DNA of 13,955 nucleotides from Escherichia coli (GTDB lineage: Bacteria > Pseudomonadota > Gammaproteobacteria > Enterobacterales > Enterobacteriaceae). The notes under the pieces were generated by a model. The model ran no database searches. It worked only from the letters and a program-made list of their open reading frames with translations, and was not told the origin of the DNA. This document shows positions 1 through 7,340 of this stretch, one piece after another (positions within the stretch are counted from its first letter, which is position 1; each line of letters begins with the position of its first letter). The stretch is taken from NCBI RefSeq assembly GCF_003334765.1, contig NZ_QOWT01000055.1; one strand, written 5' to 3'. Position numbers and translations under genes: made by a program.

Positions 1-453
1 CACCGGGGACATCAGCAGGTGCTGTTTGTGGTGACGCAGGCCGACAAAACGGAGCCCTGCCATGAATGGGATATGGCAGGTATTCAGCCTTCTCCCGCAC
101 AGGAACAGAACATTCGTGAGAAAACAGATGCGGTATTCCGGCTGTTCCGGCCCGTACATCCGGTTGTGGCCGTATCGGCCCGCACCGGCTGGGAACTGGA
201 TACGCTGGTCAGTGCGCTCATGACAGCACTTCCCGACCATGCCGCCAGTCCCCTGATGACCCGCCTGCAGGACGAGCTGCGCACGGAGTCTGTCCGGTCT
301 CAGGCCCGTGAACAGTTTACCGGTGCGGTGGACCGGATATTTGACACGGCGGAGAGCGTCTGCATTGCCTCTGTTGCACGCACGGTTCTGCGCGCCGTCC
401 GTGACTCGGTGGTCTCTGTTGCCCGCGCGGTATGGAACTGGATTTTCTTCTGA
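1..453 (+). CDS. GTPase of the YeeP/YfjP/YkfA family (3' portion; 5' end upstream of window)
   Basis: Frame is open from base 1 (HRGHQQVLFVVTQADK...) to TGA at 451-453. Tail resembles from memory the C-terminal region of CP4-prophage GTP-binding proteins, and it sits directly upstream of a DUF932-type gene as yfjP does before yfjQ. Confidence 0.6.
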   Translation, partial: HRGHQQVLFVVTQADKTEPCHEWDMAGIQPSPAQEQNIREKTDAVFRLFRPVHPVVAVSARTGWELDTLVSALMTALPDHAASPLMTRLQDELRTESVRSQAREQFTGAVDRIFDTAESVCIASVARTVLRAVRDSVVSVARAVWNWIFF

Positions 454-540
454 ACCCGGTGGTGATGTACCAGGCTGTTGTTACAGATTTTTAACTCCAT
501 GAAAACACTATGCAAACGCAGCCATACCCGGGTTGTCCCC

Positions 541-569
541 TTGCGTTGTGTTTCTCAAGTTAATAGAAT
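541..569 (+). promoter_or_regulatory. Putative sigma70 promoter (-35 TTGCGT 541-546, 17-bp spacer, -10 TAGAAT 564-569)
   Basis: Hexamers and spacing read directly from the sequence; predicted transcript start around 576-578, about 95 nt upstream of the ATG at 671. Confidence 0.4.
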
Positions 570-572
570 ACA

Positions 573-613
573 TCGATCGTTACTATCATATCGATCGTTA
601 TAAACGATCGTTT
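573..613 (+). promoter_or_regulatory. Three GATC (Dam) sites inside a thrice-repeated CGATCGTT motif, at and just downstream of the predicted transcript start
   Basis: GATC at 575-578, 593-596 and 606-609, each within CGATCG; motif copies TCGATCGTTA (573-582), TCGATCGTTA (591-600), ACGATCGTTT (604-613). Confidence 0.55.
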
Positions 614-670
614 GTAGTAAATGACCTCCTCCGTGGTTGTCATGAAAATGCGTCTTAGGAAGGTTAAATA

Positions 671-3067
671 ATGCACGAAAAGAACATCGCCCTGCTTTGT
701 GATGAAGCCGACCGACTTTTGCAACTGAACATTAATCTGCTCCGGCAAATGGTTGAGGAGCCAGATGTGTTATCTGACAGTAAGAACGAAAACAGACTGC
801 TTTTTGATAAACAGAAAGCACTGAAAAGAATTGAGGAGCTGGAGGGCGAACAAATCAAAACCGCCCGCAGGGAGATGGTGCTGGCTGTTGTCGGCACGAT
901 GAAAGCAGGCAAATCAACCACCATCAATGCCATTGTGGGGCAGGAAATTCTGCCTAACCGTAACCGCCCCATGACCTCTGTACCGACGCTCATCCGCCAC
1001 GTTCCCGGAAAAACTGAGCCGGTTCTCCATCTGGAACATATTCAGCCTGTCCGCAATTTATTAATCACACTGCAGGAAAAACTCGCCACCCCGGCAGGAC
1101 AGCAGGTCGCACAGACCCTGCAGCAAACCGGGGATACCCGCGAACTGCTGGATATTCTGACGGATGATGGCTGGCTCAAAAATGAATACCACGGGGAGGA
1201 GGAAATCTTTACCGGACTGGCATCGTTAAACGATCTGGTTCGTCTTGCTGCGGCAATGGGGACTGAATTTCCTTTTGATGAATACGCAGAAGTGCAGAAA
1301 CTGCCGGTGATCGACGTGGAATTCAGCCATCTGGTGGGGATGGATGCATGCCAGGGAACACTCACACTGCTGGATACCCCCGGCCCTAATGAGGCCGGAC
1401 AACCGCAGATGGAAGTGATGATGCGGGATCAACTGCAGAAAGCCTCTGCGGTTCTGGCTGTGATGGATTACACCCAGATGAACTCAAAAGCGGATGAAGA
1501 CGTCCGTAAAGAGCTTAATGCCATTGCTGACGTATCAGCCGGCCGCCTGTTTGTACTGGTCAATAAATTTGATGAGAAAGACCGCAATGGCGATGGGGCA
1601 GATGCCGTACGCCAGAAAGTTCCGGCAATGCTGAACAGCGATGTGCTGCCCGCCTCCCGCGTTTATCCCGGATCCTCACGCCAGGCATACCTGGCTAACC
1701 GTGCGCTTCATGAGTTACGGAAAAACGGAACCCTTCCTGTTGATGAAGCCTGGGTCGATGATTTTATCAGAGGTGCCTTCGGTTGCATGAAAAAAGAATA
1801 CGTCTGTAAAGACAGTGAACTGGCAACTGAAGGGGCGACAGACCTGTGGGAAGGCTCACTTATCGATCAACTGATAACGGAAGTCATACAGAGCTCACAT
1901 TCCAGAGCTGCGGCACTGGCGGTTGACTCTGCCGCCGCAAAACTGATGCAGAATGCAGAAAATATCAGTGAATACCTGTTGTTACGCCATCAGGGGCTAC
2001 AGCAAAGCATTCAGTCACTGCAGTCGCATATCACCAGCCTGCTTGCGGATATCCGGGAAATCGCGGACTGTCAGGAGCAGATGACCACTGATGTCAGAAT
2101 GGCCATGGAGGAGATCGATACTAAAACCCGGGAATTACTGACGGGGGTCTGCACCTCACTGGAAGAGGAGCTGAATGACTATTTCAGAAGCGGTAAACGC
2201 AAAGAACAGCAAATGCTGGAGGAAGAAGACGCAGAACAACGAAGGTCTCAGTCCGGATTATGGGGGAAAATTTCTCAATGGTCCGGTATCAACAACCAGG
2301 GCCGGGAGGATTACAGGAAACGAGATTTTGCCCCGGACAGCCCCGAAATAAAATTCAGTGATCGCAGGGAAGCCCTTGAACTGATGACGCAAATCGAATC
2401 GACCGTGACCAGCCTGCACCGTGAGGCTGAAGCACAGTTCCGGCCTGAGCTGGAGAAAATCGTCAGCGGGATTGAAACAGGTTTTCGTGGCACGGCCCTG
2501 TACGCCACAGAAAACATTGCCGGTCGCATCAATGCCCGCCTGGAGGATGAGGGCTTTACCGTAAAAATCAGTTTTCCGGCAGTCAGCCAGTTACAGACCC
2601 GGCTCGCGGTAAAAATAAATCTGAGTGCGCTTATGGAGGAAAGAACGGAGACCGTCACCCGTCGCCGTCGGCAGAGTGGCGTATGGGGAACCGTTTGTCG
2701 ATGGTTTGGCACCAGTGACCTGGGCTGGGAAAACTATGACGAGGATGTGAGTCGCAGCGTGATCAATATCAACAAGGTCAGAGAGGAAGTTATGTCACTG
2801 ACCCGGGCATATTTCGGGGAGCTGCAGGCATCCATTGAGCAGGATATTAACCAGCCCGTCCGCCAGGAAATCGATGCCTTTTTCTGCGCATTCAGGGAGA
2901 AAGTTGAACAACTGCGTAACACGCTGATTCAGAGCTCTGAGGATCATAAACGCGATCAGCAGGCGCAGGAACGACTTACCGGGCGACTTCAGGCATTAAA
3001 TGAAAGGGTTCCTGAGCTCATTACTGACAGTAAGGCGCTGAGGGAAGAGCTGGAGACAATGCTGTGA
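671..3067 (+). CDS. Dynamin-like large GTPase, CrfC/YjdA-like paralog (798 aa)
   Basis: RBS AGGAAGG about 8 nt before ATG 671. P-loop GTMKAGKST encoded at 893-919, DTPG at 1373-1384, NKFD at 1562-1573, followed by a ~500-aa largely helical region. Collinear from memory with CrfC (…GTMKAGKSTTINAIVG…LPNRNRPMT…LTLLDTPGPNEAGQP…VLVNKFD…). Confidence 0.85.
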   Translation: MHEKNIALLCDEADRLLQLNINLLRQMVEEPDVLSDSKNENRLLFDKQKALKRIEELEGEQIKTARREMVLAVVGTMKAGKSTTINAIVGQEILPNRNRPMTSVPTLIRHVPGKTEPVLHLEHIQPVRNLLITLQEKLATPAGQQVAQTLQQTGDTRELLDILTDDGWLKNEYHGEEEIFTGLASLNDLVRLAAAMGTEFPFDEYAEVQKLPVIDVEFSHLVGMDACQGTLTLLDTPGPNEAGQPQMEVMMRDQLQKASAVLAVMDYTQMNSKADEDVRKELNAIADVSAGRLFVLVNKFDEKDRNGDGADAVRQKVPAMLNSDVLPASRVYPGSSRQAYLANRALHELRKNGTLPVDEAWVDDFIRGAFGCMKKEYVCKDSELATEGATDLWEGSLIDQLITEVIQSSHSRAAALAVDSAAAKLMQNAENISEYLLLRHQGLQQSIQSLQSHITSLLADIREIADCQEQMTTDVRMAMEEIDTKTRELLTGVCTSLEEELNDYFRSGKRKEQQMLEEEDAEQRRSQSGLWGKISQWSGINNQGREDYRKRDFAPDSPEIKFSDRREALELMTQIESTVTSLHREAEAQFRPELEKIVSGIETGFRGTALYATENIAGRINARLEDEGFTVKISFPAVSQLQTRLAVKINLSALMEERTETVTRRRRQSGVWGTVCRWFGTSDLGWENYDEDVSRSVININKVREEVMSLTRAYFGELQASIEQDINQPVRQEIDAFFCAFREKVEQLRNTLIQSSEDHKRDQQAQERLTGRLQALNERVPELITDSKALREELETML

Positions 3068-4467
3068 CTTCACCATTTATTCAACAAATTGCTGATAACC
3101 GGGTATGTCAGGTACTCACCTGTCTTCCTGAAAAATTTGTGGTTGATTTCGCAAACGGAATCGATGTTGCACAGGAGCATATCCGCACGGCCGGAGAGCG
3201 CACGTTCTTCCGGCGTTTAAAAGAGGGGCTGACCGGCGAAGGCGCTGCACGGCAGAATGCCATCAATGCGTCGCTTGCACAGGGCGTTGAGGCGTCCCTG
3301 CGCTGGCTGACGGAGATGACAACGTCACTTGCCACCACAAACTACGCGATTACCCAGGTAAACGACAGGGTCAGTTCACTGGTCAGTGATACAGCCAGGC
3401 TGGCGCATTATTCCGCAGATACGCGGGAGCAGTTACTCACCCTGGCCGATCAGGTTCACCATAAACTGAATCATCTTGAAGAAAAACTCCACCGTGTTGA
3501 CCAGGTTCAGCGGGCGCAGTTACATCTTGAGCAGATATTCTCATGGTGGAGCGCCGGGCGATATGCGTCATTTTCCCCTGCCGGACGTTGTTATGTGGCA
3601 CTTGAAGAGCTTCGCTGGGGCGCGTTTGGTGATGTGATACGTCAGGGCGAAACAGGCCAGGTTAACCAGCTACTGGATATTCTCAGACATAAAGCATTAA
3701 CGCAGATGGCACAGGAGAGTGGCGGTAGTGCAACCGTGCGTCTGAACACTCTGGACTGGCTTGGTGGTCAGGGCCGGGAGCAGGCAGATAACGAGTGGCA
3801 TGACGCGATTAACTGGCTGGGAGACTGGTGCAGTGAAGAGCAGCATCCGGTGACCCGTGTGCGCGACCCGGGCCGCCGGGGATACACAAAACACATGCTG
3901 CGTCTGCGGCGGGCCGGAGAGATAAACGGAGAACATGTCCCTGAAATTATTCTGCTCAACTCTCATGACGGTACCTCCAGCTACCAGATGCTGCCGGGTT
4001 ACTTCAGGTTCGTCTGCCAGAACGGGTGCGTCTGTGGCCAGTCTCTGGGGGAAGTGCGTGTTCCACACCGGGGAAATGTAGTGGAGAAAGTTATCGAAGG
4101 GGCTTACGAGGTGGTGGGCGTGTTTGACCGGATAGAGGAGAAGCGTGATGCCATGCAGTCGCTGGTCCTGCCGCCACCGGCACGCCAGGCGCTGGCACAG
4201 GCGGCACTGACTTACCGTTATGGTGACGAACATCAGCCCGTCACCACCGCCGACATTCTGACGCCGCGACGCCGGGAGGATTACGGTAAGGACCTGTGGA
4301 GCGCATATCAGACCATCCAGGAGAATATGCTGAAAGGCGGGATTTCCGGTCGCAGTGCAAAAGGAAAACGTATCCATACCCGGGCCATTCACAGCATTGA
4401 TACCGACATTAAGCTCAATCGCGCATTGTGGGTGATGGCAGAAACGATGCTGGAGAGCCTGCGCTGA
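3064..4467 (+). CDS. Partner protein, apparently chimeric: N-terminal ~260 aa of unplaced helical domain fused to a DUF932/UPF0380 (YfjQ/YafZ-like) C-terminal ~200 aa
   Basis: GTG start at 3064 overlaps the upstream TGA (GTGA, 3064-3067). C-terminal segment (…TRVRDPGRRGYTKHMLRLRRAGEI…EIILLNSHDGTSSYQMLPGYFRFVCQNG…KLNRALWVMAETMLESLR) matches my memory of YfjQ-family proteins minus their first ~70 residues. Confidence 0.7.
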   Translation: MTSPFIQQIADNRVCQVLTCLPEKFVVDFANGIDVAQEHIRTAGERTFFRRLKEGLTGEGAARQNAINASLAQGVEASLRWLTEMTTSLATTNYAITQVNDRVSSLVSDTARLAHYSADTREQLLTLADQVHHKLNHLEEKLHRVDQVQRAQLHLEQIFSWWSAGRYASFSPAGRCYVALEELRWGAFGDVIRQGETGQVNQLLDILRHKALTQMAQESGGSATVRLNTLDWLGGQGREQADNEWHDAINWLGDWCSEEQHPVTRVRDPGRRGYTKHMLRLRRAGEINGEHVPEIILLNSHDGTSSYQMLPGYFRFVCQNGCVCGQSLGEVRVPHRGNVVEKVIEGAYEVVGVFDRIEEKRDAMQSLVLPPPARQALAQAALTYRYGDEHQPVTTADILTPRRREDYGKDLWSAYQTIQENMLKGGISGRSAKGKRIHTRAIHSIDTDIKLNRALWVMAETMLESLR

Positions 4468-4548
4468 TGCCGTTTCCCTGAGTGAGGGAATCATTCAGCT
4501 TTCGTTCCTGAAAAACACACATTTATTTGTTATTTAAGGAGTTATCTC

Positions 4549-5028
4549 ATGAAAACCGTTTCTCAGAATACCCCCACAATTTATTCAGCTACAACACCAG
4601 AGAATAATCCGCCTCAGTTGGTTGCCAGCCTCGTCCCTGATGAACAGCGCATCAGCTTCTGGCCGCAGCATTTTGGCCTCATTCCACAGTGGGTGACCCT
4701 GGAGCCCCGTGTCTTCGGCTGGATGGACCGTCTGTGCGAAGACTACTGCGGTGGTATCTGGAATCTGTACACCCTGAACAACGGCGGGGCATTTATGGCA
4801 CCCGAACCGGATGACGATGATGGCGAAAACTGGGTACTGTTCAATGCCATGAACGGTAACCGCGCTGAAATGAGCCCGGAAGCCGCCGGCATTGCCGCCT
4901 GTCTGATGACGTACAGTCATCATGCCTGTCGTACGGAGTGTTATGCCATGACGGTCCATTATTACCGGCTGCGGGATTACGCCCTGCAGCATCCGGAATG
5001 CAGCGCCATTATGCGCATCATCGACTGA
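4549..5028 (+). CDS. Antirestriction protein, ArdB/KlcA family (YfjX/YafX-like), 159 aa
   Basis: RBS AAGGAG 7 nt before ATG. Acidic DDDDGE stretch and cysteine/histidine-rich C-terminus as I recall for this family; position before the RadC-like gene is as in CP4 islands. Confidence 0.75.
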   Translation: MKTVSQNTPTIYSATTPENNPPQLVASLVPDEQRISFWPQHFGLIPQWVTLEPRVFGWMDRLCEDYCGGIWNLYTLNNGGAFMAPEPDDDDGENWVLFNAMNGNRAEMSPEAAGIAACLMTYSHHACRTECYAMTVHYYRLRDYALQHPECSAIMRIID

Positions 5029-5043
5029 ATGGAGGCAGGGACA

Positions 5044-5520
5044 ATGCAACAACTTTCCTTTCTGCCCGGAGAGATGACGCCCGGCGAGCGCAGCCTCATT
5101 CAACGGGCCCTGAAAACCCTGGACCGCCATCTTCATGAACCCGGCGTGGCCTTCACCTCCACCCGTGCAGCACGGGAATGGCTGATTCTGAACATGGCGG
5201 GACTGGAGCGTGAAGAATTCCGGGTGCTGTATCTGAATAACCAGAATCAACTGATTGCCGGTGAAACCCTCTTTACCGGCACCATCAACCGCACGGAAGT
5301 CCATCCCCGGGAAGTGATTAAACGCGCCCTGTACCACAATGCCGCTGCCGTGGTACTGGCACACAATCACCCGTCCGGTGAAGTCACACCCAGTAAGGCA
5401 GACCGGCTTATCACCGAACGTCTGGTACAGGCACTGGGCCTGGTGGATATCCGGGTGCCGGACCATCTGATAGTCGGTGGCAACCAGGTTTTCTCCTTTG
5501 CCGAACATGGTCTGCTTTAA
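5044..5520 (+). CDS. yeeS: RadC-like JAB/MPN-domain protein (UPF0758; YeeS/YkfG/YfjY family)
   Basis: JAMM-type motif HNHPSG present. ATG at 5044 is preferred over the in-frame ATG at 5029 because GGAGG precedes it and it gives a 158-aa product typical of the family. Confidence 0.8.
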   Translation: MQQLSFLPGEMTPGERSLIQRALKTLDRHLHEPGVAFTSTRAAREWLILNMAGLEREEFRVLYLNNQNQLIAGETLFTGTINRTEVHPREVIKRALYHNAAAVVLAHNHPSGEVTPSKADRLITERLVQALGLVDIRVPDHLIVGGNQVFSFAEHGLL

Positions 5521-5582
5521 CCCGTCACAACCACATCACACCTGTTTTCACTTTTATCTTCTGTCTTCAGAGGTATCCCATT

Positions 5583-5804
5583 ATGAAAATTATCACCCGT
5601 GGTGAAGCCATGCGTATTCACCAACAACATCCGACATCCCGTCTTTTTCCGTTCTGTACCGGTAAATACCGCTGGCACGGCAGTGCTGAAGCGTATACCG
5701 GTCGTGAAGTGCAGGATATTCCCGGTGTGCTGGCCGTGTTTGCTGAACGCCGTAAGGACAGTTTTGGTCCGTATGTCCGGCTGATGAGCGTCACCCTGAA
5801 CTGA
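5583..5804 (+). CDS. yeeT: YeeT/YkfF-family small protein (DUF905), 73 aa
   Basis: Size, sequence (MKIITRGEAMRIHQQHPTSRLFPFCTGKYRWHG…) and position between the RadC-like and antitoxin genes. Confidence 0.75.
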   Translation: MKIITRGEAMRIHQQHPTSRLFPFCTGKYRWHGSAEAYTGREVQDIPGVLAVFAERRKDSFGPYVRLMSVTLN

Positions 5805-5877
5805 GTGGGAATTCTGATGAGCAGAATTATCGCCACTACCGGACCATTCTTAGCCGATTTTCTGTAAGGATTTTATC

Positions 5878-6246
5878 GTGTCAGACACACTCCCCGGGAC
5901 AACACTTCCCGACGACAATCACGACCGCCCCTGGTGGGGGCTGCCCTGCACCGTGACGCCCTGTTTCGGGGCACGTCTGGTGCAGGAGGGTAACCGGTTG
6001 CATTACCTTGCCGACCGCGCCGGTATCAGAGGCCTGTTCAGCGATGCAGATGCGTACCACCTGGACCAGGCCTTTCCGCTGCTGATGAAACAACTGGAAC
6101 TCGTGCTCACCAGCGGTGAACTGAATCCCCGCCATCAGCATACCGTCACGCTGTATGCAAAAGGGCTGACCTGCAAAGCCGATACCCTCAGCAGTTGTGG
6201 TTACGTTTATCTGGCTGTTTATCCGACGCCCGAAATGAAAAATTAA
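5878..6246 (+). CDS. cbeA: Type IV antitoxin CbeA (YeeU), 122 aa, GTG start
   Basis: Translation (MSDTLPGTTLPDDNHDRPWWGLPCTVTPCFGARLVQEGNRLHYLADRAGIRGLF…) is near-identical to YeeU as I recall it; AAGGA 7 nt before GTG 5878. Confidence 0.85.
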   Translation: MSDTLPGTTLPDDNHDRPWWGLPCTVTPCFGARLVQEGNRLHYLADRAGIRGLFSDADAYHLDQAFPLLMKQLELVLTSGELNPRHQHTVTLYAKGLTCKADTLSSCGYVYLAVYPTPEMKN

Positions 6247-6334
6247 CTCTCCAGAATAGCCTTCTGCTACGGCCTGGTGTTTTCACCACGCCACTTTTCC
6301 ATTTTTATATCTGCATATCAGGAAAATCTTCAGT

Positions 6335-6709
6335 ATGAAAACATTACCTGTATTACCCGGGCAGGCGACCAGTTCTCGCCCGTCTCCTGTTGAAATCTGG
6401 CAGATACTGCTGTCCCGACTGCTGGACCAGCACTATGGCCTCACACTGAATGACACACCTTTTGCCGATGAACGTGTGATTGAGCAGCATATTGAGGCAG
6501 GCATTTCACTGTGTGATGCGGTGAACTTTCTCGTGGAAAAATACGCGCTGGTGCGTACCGACCAGCCGGGATTCAGCGCCTGTACCCGCTCTCAGTTAAT
6601 AAACAGCATCGATATCCTCCGGGCTCGCAGGGCGACCGGCCTGATGACCCGCGACAATTACAGAACGGTAAATAACATTACCCTGGGTAAGTATCCGGAG
6701 GCGAAATGA
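6335..6709 (+). CDS. cbtA: Type IV toxin CbtA (YeeV), 124 aa
   Basis: Translation (MKTLPVLPGQATSSRPSPVEIWQILLSRLLDQHYGLTLNDTPFADERV…) matches the CbtA/YkfI/YpjF family; it lies directly downstream of the antitoxin. Confidence 0.85.
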   Translation: MKTLPVLPGQATSSRPSPVEIWQILLSRLLDQHYGLTLNDTPFADERVIEQHIEAGISLCDAVNFLVEKYALVRTDQPGFSACTRSQLINSIDILRARRATGLMTRDNYRTVNNITLGKYPEAK

Positions 6710-6900
6710 TGACACTGGAAGCCGACAGCGTTAACGTACAGGCGCTGGATATGGGGCACATTGTCGTTGACATTGATGGTGTTAATATCACTGAACTGAT
6801 TAATAAGGCCGCTGAAAAAGGTTATTCACTCCGCGTGGTGGATGACCGTGACTCTACCGAAACACCGGCAACTTATGCCAGCCCTCACCAGTTGCTGTAA
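6706..6900 (+). CDS. yeeW: YeeW-like small protein, 64 aa
   Basis: ATGA start/stop overlap with cbtA at 6706-6709; conserved position after the toxin in CP4-44-type islands. Confidence 0.65.
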   Translation: MMTLEADSVNVQALDMGHIVVDIDGVNITELINKAAEKGYSLRVVDDRDSTETPATYASPHQLL

Positions 6901-6912
6901 GACAATGCAGTG

Positions 6913-7026
6913 ATGCAGGGTATAGTGCCATTAACCACAGAAACAGCACTGTTGTCCTGTATTAAGCAGGCAAGAGAAGATGTCCTTACCCTGCGCCATC
7001 TGCAGCTTCTGCACCAGAACCGGTGA
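6913..7026 (+). CDS. Possible small ORF (37 aa; MQGIVPLTTETALLSCIKQAREDVLTLRHLQLLHQNR)
   Basis: Open frame between yeeW and the terminator at 7056. No convincing Shine-Dalgarno. Low confidence. Confidence 0.2.
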   Translation: MQGIVPLTTETALLSCIKQAREDVLTLRHLQLLHQNR

Positions 7027-7055
7027 ATCTCACTCAACAGGCTTCATTTCCCCTG

Positions 7056-7090
7056 ACGCCAGCCTGAATACAGCTGGCGTTTTCATTTAT
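7056..7090 (+). terminator. Rho-independent terminator ending the island operon
   Basis: Perfect 8-bp stem ACGCCAGC (7056-7063) / GCTGGCGT (7073-7080) with a 9-nt loop, followed by TTTCATTTAT. Confidence 0.6.
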
Positions 7091-7184
7091 AAACAGAAAG
7101 GAAAACCGATAATAATGGAATGGACGCCCCGACCATGAAGCAACGGTAGGATATTACTGATAAACCTTCCAGTGGAGGTGCGTT

Positions 7185-7265
7185 ATGGCCGTTTTAACGA
7201 TTAGCATTGACCTGACAAAAAATGAATTCCAAATCCACGGTCTGGGTAGGAACAGAAAAATCTAA
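7185..7265 (+). pseudogene. Remnant resembling the N-terminus of an IS110-family transposase (26 codons then stop)
   Basis: MAVLTISIDLTKNEFQIHGLGRNRKI* resembles the IDL(A/T)K..F.(V/I)HG N-terminal signature of IS110-family transposases; preceded by GGAGG. Confidence 0.35.
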
Positions 7266-7340
7266 GCTCAGAAAACGGATTAAAGTAAGCGTCAACGGAG
7301 CACCGTATTGACGCTTATTTATTGGTGAGAACTACGTTCC

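Follow-up and report, generated by a model that had tools for sequence, protein, structure and literature searches.

The window analyzed here, the whole stretch of 13,955 bp, is one complete contig of an E. coli draft assembly and carries a block of antirestriction, RadC-like, and toxin-antitoxin genes closely behind dynamin and YjcZ-like genes. This raises the question of whether the block is a new or mosaic assemblage, or the ordinary backbone of a known island. The locus is the CP4-44 site beside tmaR-yeeA-sbmC-dacD, and the alignment of window positions 5068-11570 with K-12 yeeS through dacD showed 98.8% DNA identity. An ORF check confirmed that all six ORFs of the block (six of six) are intact on the plus strand at the coordinates given below. 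The best explanation, to which we assign a probability of about 90%, is that positions 3853-6900 would be a complete distal backbone of the ordinary kind, belonging to the genomic island found at the CP4-44 locus of E. coli. The order of this backbone would be a 5'-truncated and fused DUF932 gene, ardB, the radC-like yeeS, yeeT, cbeA, cbtA, and a truncated yeeW, and all of these genes lie on one strand with intergenic gaps of 15-88 bp. Contents and arrangement of the block are already known, and nothing in it is new. The block belongs to the most often duplicated gene sets in E. coli, with members that are named in RefSeq: it was matched in 4,957 of the 5,426 complete E. coli genomes, at a median of 3 places per genome, the 781-base ard-radC stretch was covered to at least 80% in 4,430 of them (82%), and the linkage of ardB, JAB protease, DUF987, cbeA, and cbtA genes recurs in the K-12 islands and in thousands of copies. 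A six-gene linkage group with antirestriction and "DNA repair" genes has been described at 4-6 copies (Bernabeu et al., 2019).

The first complete gene of the block, ardB (4549-5028, plus strand), encodes a 159-aa antirestriction protein that we assign to the ArdB/KlcA family, as it matched the Pfam profile Antirestrict (PF03230, 3.6e-35), the PHROG "anti-restriction protein" (1.1e-63), and two PDB entries, namely 2WJ9, the ArdB of E. coli CFT073 (E 4.7e-100, about 90% identity over the full length, with differences clustering in the first 30 residues), and KlcA 2KMG (E 1.9e-21). CFT073 ArdB relieves type IA-ID restriction 54- to 1,174-fold in vivo and shows no relief in vitro, and with CFT073 ArdB, YafX, and YfjX, type I restriction is relieved in vivo while modification is kept (PMC2836571). 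By analogy, the ArdB of the window would relieve type I restriction in vivo upon entry of the element into a new host, leaving modification unblocked. As K-12 CP4-44 is devoid of an integrase (Wen et al., 2017), this role during entry may be historical. The following gene yeeS (5044-5520, plus strand, with the ATG at 5044 in an ORF that is open from 5029) encodes a 158-aa RadC-like JAB/JAMM domain protein (PF04002, 5.4e-43; NCBIfam TIGR00608, 149 bits at a cut-off of 133.85). The JAMM motif, HNHPSGEVTPSKAD, can be read in its translation and is preceded by a Glu within EVHPRE, so that profile and motif pattern (E...HxH-x7-S-xx-D) both place it in this family. The protein is 100% identical to YeeS of K-12 (over the 148 aa of the latter), of XH990, and of the Ag43-type island L007, although the DNA differs. 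LfgB, the CP4-57 paralogue with 78% identity to YeeS, is described as a protease within the lfgABCDE operon, with degradation of the antitoxin MqsA as its reported activity (PMC10846083), and on this model YeeS would likewise be a metalloprotease.

YeeT (73 aa, 5583-5804, plus strand) is 100% identical to K-12 YeeT and matched DUF987 (PF06174, 4.9e-37). The first-pass annotation had listed a DUF905 protein in the block, but DUF987 alone was returned for YeeT, and the Pfam scan gave no DUF905 match to it even at E <= 10; in fuller islands such as L007, DUF905 has a gene of its own, which precedes the DUF932 gene, and the window has no such gene. The other proposed identities (Antirestrict, RadC/JAB, CbeA, CbtA, and YeeW) were all recovered by Pfam. 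The type IV antitoxin CbeA (yeeU; 122 aa, 5878-6246, plus strand; CbeA_antitoxin, PF06154, 2.1e-50) is 98.4% identical to K-12 CbeA, with the two exchanges V76M and G108D, and the toxin CbtA (yeeV; 124 aa, 6335-6709, plus strand; CbtA_toxin, PF06755, 1e-55), which binds FtsZ and MreB, is 99.2% identical to K-12 CbtA, with T12A as the single exchange. The gene pair thus shows the type IV arrangement, with cbeA followed by cbtA at a distance of 88 nt and with both profiles (PF06154 and PF06755) matched. The toxicity of K-12 CbtA is neutralized by CbeA without a direct binding of the two proteins. R15, which is needed for MreB binding, and F65, which is needed for FtsZ binding (Heller et al., 2017; PMC5624674), are both present in the CbtA of the window. 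As in K-12, CbtA would thus be expected to block cell division and elongation via binding to FtsZ and MreB, CbeA would counteract it by stabilizing FtsZ/MreB polymers, and together they would act as a type IV toxin-antitoxin pair that favors retention of the island.

Most likely, the backbone block is a single transcription unit, with gene spacing and the CP4-57 operon as the two indications. A scan of positions 3800-7800 for promoter and terminator consensus sequences gave site counts that were not above those of shuffled sequence, and the window does not contain ACAT-N2-ACAT, the MqsA site in the lfg promoter of CP4-57, so that the lfg regulation of CP4-57 is not transferable to it. Rfam returned no RNA family, neither for the whole window at gathering thresholds nor for 4400-7800 at E <= 1. 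Among the module proteins, RadC alone matched an NCBIfam model, as no NCBIfam HMM matched Ard, YeeT, CbeA, CbtA, or YeeW, and we therefore assigned the families by Pfam, PHROGs, and PDB. PADLOC did not match any of the module proteins to its defense-system models. The only PADLOC match reported was a marginal one to LeoBC, obtained with the N-terminus of the dynamin. A 307-aa antisense ORF at 4585-5508 was rejected as a coding sequence, since the genes on the sense strand match their families strongly and show low dN/dS, and PGAP has no annotation for the antisense ORF.

Only two stretches of the window, 7-456 and 5068-11570, align to K-12, with 457-5067 missing from K-12, and tblastn with the Ard protein detected no ardB homologue in the K-12 CP4-44 locus (best E 0.27), in agreement with the published view that four of the five module genes are shared with CP4-44 (Wen et al., 2017). 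The statement in the first-pass annotation that K-12 CP4-44 does not include the antirestriction gene was therefore right, and a comparison of the yeeP-yeeW gene content with the window confirmed that the two are not the same. From this, a mosaic had been suggested in which a yeeS-yeeW backbone of the CP4-44 type was joined to an antirestriction gene taken from a backbone like that of CP4-57 or CP4-6. Such a junction would be in line with the presence of ardB in CP4-57 (lfgA/yfjX) and CP4-6 (yafX) but not in K-12 CP4-44, and with the abrupt beginning of the K-12 homology at window position 5068. However, this abrupt beginning is the edge of a deletion in K-12, as comparison with L007 shows: positions 9509-12300 and 12303-13039 of the K-12 locus align to L007 1161-3952 and 7289-8025, so that 3,336 bp are missing (L007 3953-7288), from inside yeeR (3' end) to 24 bp into the JAB gene, with ardB included. 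Ard shares only 68.6% of its residues with YfjX and 69.4% with YafX, which is within the range of its neighbors in comparison to CP4-57/CP4-6 (RadC 78/82%, YeeT 64/66%, CbeA 66/62%, CbtA 64/60%). At the DNA level, identity to CP4-57 and CP4-6 is evenly 69-75% from the DUF932 part to cbtA, and no segment shows a higher affinity. As, in addition, this locus is arranged in the same way in many genomes, a mosaic origin of this kind is highly improbable. K-12 CP4-44 is, judged from these alignments, a derived deletion state that lost ardB and not the reference state. The K-12 deletion junction is found in 385 of the 5,426 complete genomes (7%), and the difference between K-12 and strain 042 has already been published (Bernabeu et al., 2019).

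The upstream border of the block is formed by a chimeric ORF of 467 aa (3064-4467, plus strand) directly upstream of ardB, in which residues 1-263 of an RdcB/YjcZ-like protein are fused in frame to residues 70-273 of a DUF932 protein of the YafZ/YfjQ type (Pfam YjcZ at aa 26-267, DUF932 at aa 264-456). Both halves are 100% identical to the respective XH990 proteins. In XH990 and APEC O2-211, the matches to window positions 1-3853 and 3852-11570 are separated by 2,856 bp, and the junction at 3852/3853 shows only a 2-bp microhomology (GA). Owing to this chimera, the gene before ardB does not close the dynamin operon cleanly, and the conserved backbone begins at 3853 and not at 4549. None of the 5,426 complete E. 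coli genomes spans the junction. An exact-protein look-up found it in the independent NCBI assembly GCA_965137835.1, and we therefore rejected an assembly artefact. The 2,856-bp in-frame deletion is lineage-specific, and only through it did the block come to follow immediately on the dynamin/YjcZ genes. The first-pass statement that the block comes right after the dynamin operon was in this sense misleading, as the adjacency is secondary. The dynamin gene can also not be regarded as new cargo, as had been assumed, since it is present in 2,435 of the 5,426 complete genomes (45%) and is named by PGAP. The juxtaposition of this cargo with antirestriction and addiction genes is thus an accident of the lineage-specific deletion. 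The strain itself represents a natural deletion mutant for studies on the dynamin/YjcZ/patatin genes, as it lacks the patatin gene and contains the YjcZ::DUF932 fusion.

At the same site in XH990 and APEC O2-211, the genes ard-yeeS-yeeT-cbeA-cbtA-yeeW are present with 99.2-99.3% identity. XH990 differs from the window at 32 positions, of which 14 are in 1-3853 and 18 in 3852-13955, and the Ard proteins of both strains differ from that of the window in three residues. The distribution of these differences suggests that, on the fine scale, the block is of the CP4-44 type throughout and that, through homologous recombination or gene conversion, short tracts were exchanged with further module copies, an explanation that we tend to favor and that complements the ordinary-backbone explanation rather than competing with it. 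Relative to XH990 and to L006, which shares the deletion, all differences within 3852-12438 fall into 4823-5524, apart from a 1-bp indel at 6555, and a second cluster of differences is found at 17-168. Within the main cluster, 4866-5040 has the states of L007 and 5355-5415 those of K-12, and other assemblies of the same locus show different combinations of patches. In addition, dS in comparison to L007 climbs from 0.03 in RadC to 0.68 in CbtA. No complete genome exceeds 98.7% identity to the 781-bp haplotype, and no donor of the haplotype at 4780-5560 was identified among the complete genomes, with 98.7% as the best match. Exchange partners could be paralogous islands or orthologous alleles of other strains, and one exchange may have restored or retained the intact cbtA of the window, as the G at 6555 is missing from XH990, APEC O2-211, and L006, which results in a frameshift and a product of 87 aa. 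On the other hand, the window is a short draft contig from a multi-copy region, and consensus errors or collapsed repeats could explain part of the pattern, especially at 17-168 at the contig edge. This caveat is countered by the recurrence of the identical Ard protein on 21 public contigs from independent samples.

The downstream end of the island is decayed: YeeW is a stub there, and DUF957, transposase, and yoeF are present as fragments. The start of yeeW (6706-6900, plus strand, 64 aa; DUF5983_N, PF25638, 2e-26) overlaps the cbtA stop by 4 bp, and the product is 98.4% identical to K-12 YeeW. It is an N-terminal remnant, as the full-length DUF5983 homologue in L007 has 163 aa with N- and C-terminal parts, whereas in the window DUF5983_N alone matched and a deletion has removed the C-terminal part that L007 has, with the 98 bp of 6846-6943 standing in place of 471 bp. 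The C-terminal remnant of a DUF957 gene follows as debris at 6913-7026 (plus strand): window positions 6944-7113 align to L007 9640-9808, the translation ...ALLSCIKQAREDVLTLRH resembles the DUF957 C-terminus, and PGAP labels the equivalents in XH990 and APEC O2-211 "DUF957, incomplete". The right boundary of CP4-44, derived from the K-12 annotation and the alignment offset, maps to about window position 7514, next to yoeF (7515-7697, plus strand), a fragment of the EutP/PduV family that covers model positions 86-141 of 142 of TIGR02528.

As YeeW is truncated, fragments are all that is left of the adjoining DUF957, transposase, and EutP genes, the DUF932 gene upstream has been disrupted, and cbtA is frameshifted in six of the 11 copies at the CP4-44 locus that we examined, the whole block could be seen as a non-functional relic of a dead island that is kept by inertia only. 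The frameshifts in the nearest relatives do indicate that the block is not under uniform constraint. However, the five core ORFs are intact in the window, dN/dS is 0.07-0.20 for all five genes in comparison to CP4-57 and CP4-6, and RadC differs from its L007 counterpart by synonymous changes only, with the protein being 100% conserved. By these sequence measures, all five core genes are under purifying selection. Moreover, the K-12 orthologues, which are 98-100% identical, have demonstrated activities, and we therefore regard the relic explanation as unlikely. The strict linkage and the purifying selection motivated a further, speculative and rather doubtful idea, toward which the evidence is neutral: the five linked genes could be components of a single system, and not independent passengers, with the JAMM protease, perhaps aided by DUF987, acting as a gate on the type IV antitoxin or toxin. 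If so, the 2,856-bp deletion would put this system under read-through from the dynamin/YjcZ operon in this lineage.

Among the known systems, the anti-defense islands that Samuel et al. (2024) described in the leading regions of plasmids likewise bring together, on a mobile element, a KlcA/ArdB-type gene and toxin-antitoxin genes, but the block of the window lies on the chromosome, within an integrative island that has decayed, no ssb, psiB, methyltransferase gene, or oriT context was seen with it, and its RadC and DUF932 components are not mentioned in that study. ArdB of the CFT073 island PAI II (2WJ9) has the same family and fold as the ArdB of the window, as does KlcA (2KMG), which is only distantly related. 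K-12 CP4-44 occupies the same chromosomal locus upstream of yoeF-tmaR-yeeA-sbmC-dacD but lacks ardB and the DUF932 gene, has a YeeS that is 10 aa shorter, and carries isrC-flu-yeeR where the window has the dynamin/YjcZ genes. In XH990 (NZ_CP019359) and APEC O2-211 (NZ_CP006834), the order runs from GTPase, dynamin, and RdcB-like genes to DUF932, antirestriction, yeeS, yeeT, cbeA, cbtA, and yeeW; between the dynamin operon and the block, these relatives retain the patatin-like phospholipase gene, two hypothetical genes, and the full DUF932 gene, the region from which 2,856 bp are gone in the window. Finally, lfgABCDE of CP4-57 (yfjX-yfjY-ypjJ-yfjZ-ypjF) and yafX-ykfG-ykfH-yafW-ykfI of CP4-6 are paralogous modules in which the five genes follow the same order and belong to the same Pfam families, with 60-82% protein and 69-75% DNA identity to the window and with an antitoxin-toxin spacer of 20 nt in comparison to 88 nt in the window. 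The first-pass annotation was right in regarding the block as well-described island backbone.

The block at window 4549-6900 lies on draft contig QOWT01000055.1 (13,955 bp; assembly GCA_003334765.1), which is identical to the window over its whole length, and the site is the E. coli CP4-44 locus. Window 5068-11570 (yeeS, yeeT, cbeA, cbtA, yeeW, yoeF, tmaR, yeeA, sbmC, and dacD) is 98.8% identical at the DNA level to K-12 MG1655, and window 7-456 aligns with 96.4% identity to the K-12 yeeP pseudogene. Both contig ends fall in repeated genes, the island GTPase gene at one and a phage tail-fibre assembly gene at the other, which explains why the contig breaks where it does.

The ORF listing reproduced exactly the boundaries of six plus-strand ORFs in the first-pass annotation, and their families were assigned by a single Pfam scan over the concatenated products. 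They are the antirestriction gene (4549-5028, Antirestrict, 3.6e-35; product Ard), the RadC-like gene yeeS (5044-5520, RadC, 5.4e-43), yeeT (5583-5804, DUF987, 4.9e-37), cbeA (5878-6246, CbeA_antitoxin, 2.1e-50), cbtA (6335-6709, CbtA_toxin, 1e-55), and yeeW (6706-6900, DUF5983_N, 2e-26). As DUF905 had no match in the scan of the six products, the initial labelling of YeeT as a DUF905 protein was wrong; in the fuller Ag43-type island L007, DUF905 is a gene of its own upstream of DUF932. The genes are compactly arranged on one strand, with intergenic gaps of 81, 15, 62, 73, and 88 nt and a 4-nt overlap of cbtA and yeeW. The five core genes are all intact and, with dN/dS ranging from 0.07 to 0.20 across them, are under purifying selection; RadC differs from L007 by synonymous changes only, and the RadC-like protein contains the JAMM motif HNHPSGEVTPSKAD. 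YeeW, at 64 aa, is a stub; the full DUF5983 protein has 163 aa, and 471 bp of L007 (DUF5983 C-terminus and DUF957 N-terminus) are replaced by window 6846-6943. An antisense 307-aa ORF (4585-5508, minus strand) spans ardB and yeeS; it carries no annotation in the related RefSeq records examined and is probably a by-product of GC-rich coding on the sense strand. The block matched nothing in Rfam or among the PADLOC models.

The antirestriction gene had been thought to be missing from K-12 CP4-44, and this proved correct: the alignment skips window 457-5067, and tblastn of Ard against the K-12 locus (L001) found nothing (best E value 0.27). The gene is missing because of a 3,336-bp deletion in K-12 relative to L007. 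On either side of it, L001 9509-12300, which holds the 3' end of flu together with yeeR, aligns with L007 1161-3952, and L001 12303-13039 with L007 7289-8025. Between these segments L007 has irmA and the genes for DUF905, DUF932, and antirestriction, all lost from K-12; the deletion also cut off the long yeeR-type gene at its 3' end and removed the initial 24 bp of the JAB gene. Of 5,426 complete genomes, 385 carry the deletion junction. The ard-radC stretch is found with at least 80% coverage in 4,430/5,426, and the full 2,352-bp block has some match in 4,957/5,426, with a median of three places per genome.

The gene's presence here had instead been attributed to a mosaic of CP4-57/CP4-6-like and CP4-44-like backbones. 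An ardB of CP4-57 or CP4-6 origin should be nearer to yfjX or yafX than its neighbors are to their counterparts. The identities to CP4-57 and CP4-6 are 68.6% and 69.4% for Ard, 77.9% and 82.3% for RadC, 63.8% and 65.8% for YeeT, 66.3% and 62.0% for CbeA, and 64.4% and 60.0% for CbtA, so that Ard is not closer than its neighbors. From the DUF932 part through cbtA, DNA identity to CP4-57 and CP4-6 is 69-75%, and the closest complete relatives, XH990 (NZ_CP019359) and APEC O2-211 (NZ_CP006834), have the identical ard-to-yeeW order at the same site with 99.2-99.3% identity. A large-scale mosaic is therefore unsupported.

The block had also been described as lying right after the dynamin operon and thus beside new cargo. 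XH990 and APEC O2-211 have, in this order, genes for a GTPase, a dynamin-family protein, an RdcB(YjcZ)-family protein, and a patatin-like phospholipase, then two hypothetical genes, DUF932, and the block. Window 1-3853 and 3852-11570 align separately to these genomes, with 2,856 bp (952 codons) missing between them and a microhomology of only 2 bp (GA) at the junction 3852/3853. This in-frame deletion takes the RdcB/YjcZ-like 3' end, the patatin-like phospholipase gene, the two hypothetical genes, and the DUF932 5' end, and the ORF at 3064-4467 (467 aa) is a chimera that joins residues 1-263 of YjcZ to residues 70-273 of DUF932. The adjacency is thus secondary, being due to a deletion in this lineage. 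Not one of the 5,426 complete genomes has the junction, but a further public assembly, GCA_965137835.1 (contig L006), does; as the junction recurs there, it is a real lineage marker. Nor is the cargo new, as the dynamin gene (798 aa; operon at window 671-3067 and 19-453) has a PGAP name and reaches at least 80% coverage in 2,435 of the 5,426 complete E. coli genomes. Its product aligns over the whole CrfC (RdcA) model but scores below the cut-off (556 of 1,146 bits), so it is a paralogue of the yjdA-yjcZ pair on the chromosome; RdcB/YjcZ has been described as the partner of CrfC/RdcA (PMC6510439). Of the earlier interpretation, the K-12 point stood, whereas the mosaic origin and the meaning given to the adjacency did not.

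At a finer scale, the sequence is patchy. Compared with XH990 and with L006, an independent contig carrying the same deletion, differences are confined to 17-168 and 4823-5524 and a 1-bp indel at 6555; 484C>T in XH990 is an exception to the two clusters. Window 4866-5040 has the states of L007 and window 5355-5415 those of K-12, the 781-bp haplotype reaches 98.7% at its best match among the 5,426 complete genomes, and other assemblies have different patch combinations at the same locus. This pattern is what recombination among many module copies would give. The two clusters suggest gene conversion or, in part, draft-assembly consensus, which may contribute above all at the contig edge; however, the exact Ard protein is present on 21 contigs from independent samples. 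Both clusters lie in multi-copy genes, namely the yeeP-like GTPase gene and ardB/yeeS, and parts of them match different paralogues. Synonymous divergence between the two island types (window 4549-6709 and L007 6764-9020) climbs steadily over the block and is 0.03 for RadC, 0.12 for Ard, 0.16 for YeeT, 0.33 for CbeA, and 0.68 for CbtA: RadC is homogenised among module copies and the toxin-antitoxin pair is diverging.

The right end of the island (6846-7700) is debris, comprising the YeeW stub (plus strand, to 6900), what is left of the DUF957 C-terminus (6913-7026), a fragment of a transposase gene that relatives have annotated, and yoeF, an EutP/PduV fragment (7515-7697). The CP4-44 boundary as annotated in K-12 corresponds to about window 7514. 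Beyond the first 49 bp of sbcB there is no further homology to K-12 or APEC O2-211, and a lambdoid prophage end starts; window 11500-12096 matches the region around the attachment site in Stx phages of the 1717/2851 type and in mEp234, and a tail-fibre-assembly gene fragment lies at 13748-13912 (minus strand). Window 11571-13955 is a lambdoid prophage, or a remnant of one, integrated in sbcB, an arrangement common to 73 complete genomes. This prophage end encodes a low-GC 359-aa membrane ORF with only 69, distant, relatives and no match in Pfam, PHROG, or PADLOC.

With regard to function, Ard is about 90% identical to ArdB of E. coli CFT073 (PDB 2WJ9; E value 4.7e-100) and matches KlcA (2KMG) at 1.9e-21. 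In vivo, CFT073 ArdB relieved restriction of types IA-ID by a factor of 54 to 1,174; it gave no relief in vitro and little affected modification (PMC2836571). The window CbtA is 99.2% identical to K-12 CbtA, with the single change T12A, and retains R15 and F65, the residues that determine MreB and FtsZ binding; CbtA blocks division and elongation via separate FtsZ and MreB contacts (PMC5624674). With G at window 6555, the window has an intact cbtA, and so do K-12 and three other copies of the locus (L009, L010, and L015); in the closest relatives (XH990, APEC O2-211, L006, L008, L011, and L012) this G is missing or the toxin is otherwise truncated to 87 aa. The locus thus shows a toxin-decay polymorphism alongside an intact antitoxin. 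CbeA reportedly works by polymer bundling. The genes of the block are probably co-transcribed, and ArdB may serve the establishment of the island and the toxin-antitoxin pair its retention; a consensus promoter and terminator scan of window 3800-7800 gave counts no higher than in shuffled sequence.

CbeA is a known type IV antitoxin (Wen et al. 2017), and LfgB, the JAB protein's paralogue in CP4-57, is a reported protease that degrades MqsA and belongs to a five-gene operon (PMC10846083); the CP4-57 MqsA site is absent from the window. The K-12 difference in this block is already in published work, as CP4-44 was reported to share four of five genes (Wen et al. 2017) and K-12 flu-yeeR-yeeS-yeeT was drawn against flu-yeeR-irmA-aec70-aec71-yeeS-yeeT of strain 042 (Bernabeu et al. 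2019). The latter study also described an antirestriction/'DNA repair' linkage group that most strains carry in 4-6 copies; the block was known before and is ubiquitous.
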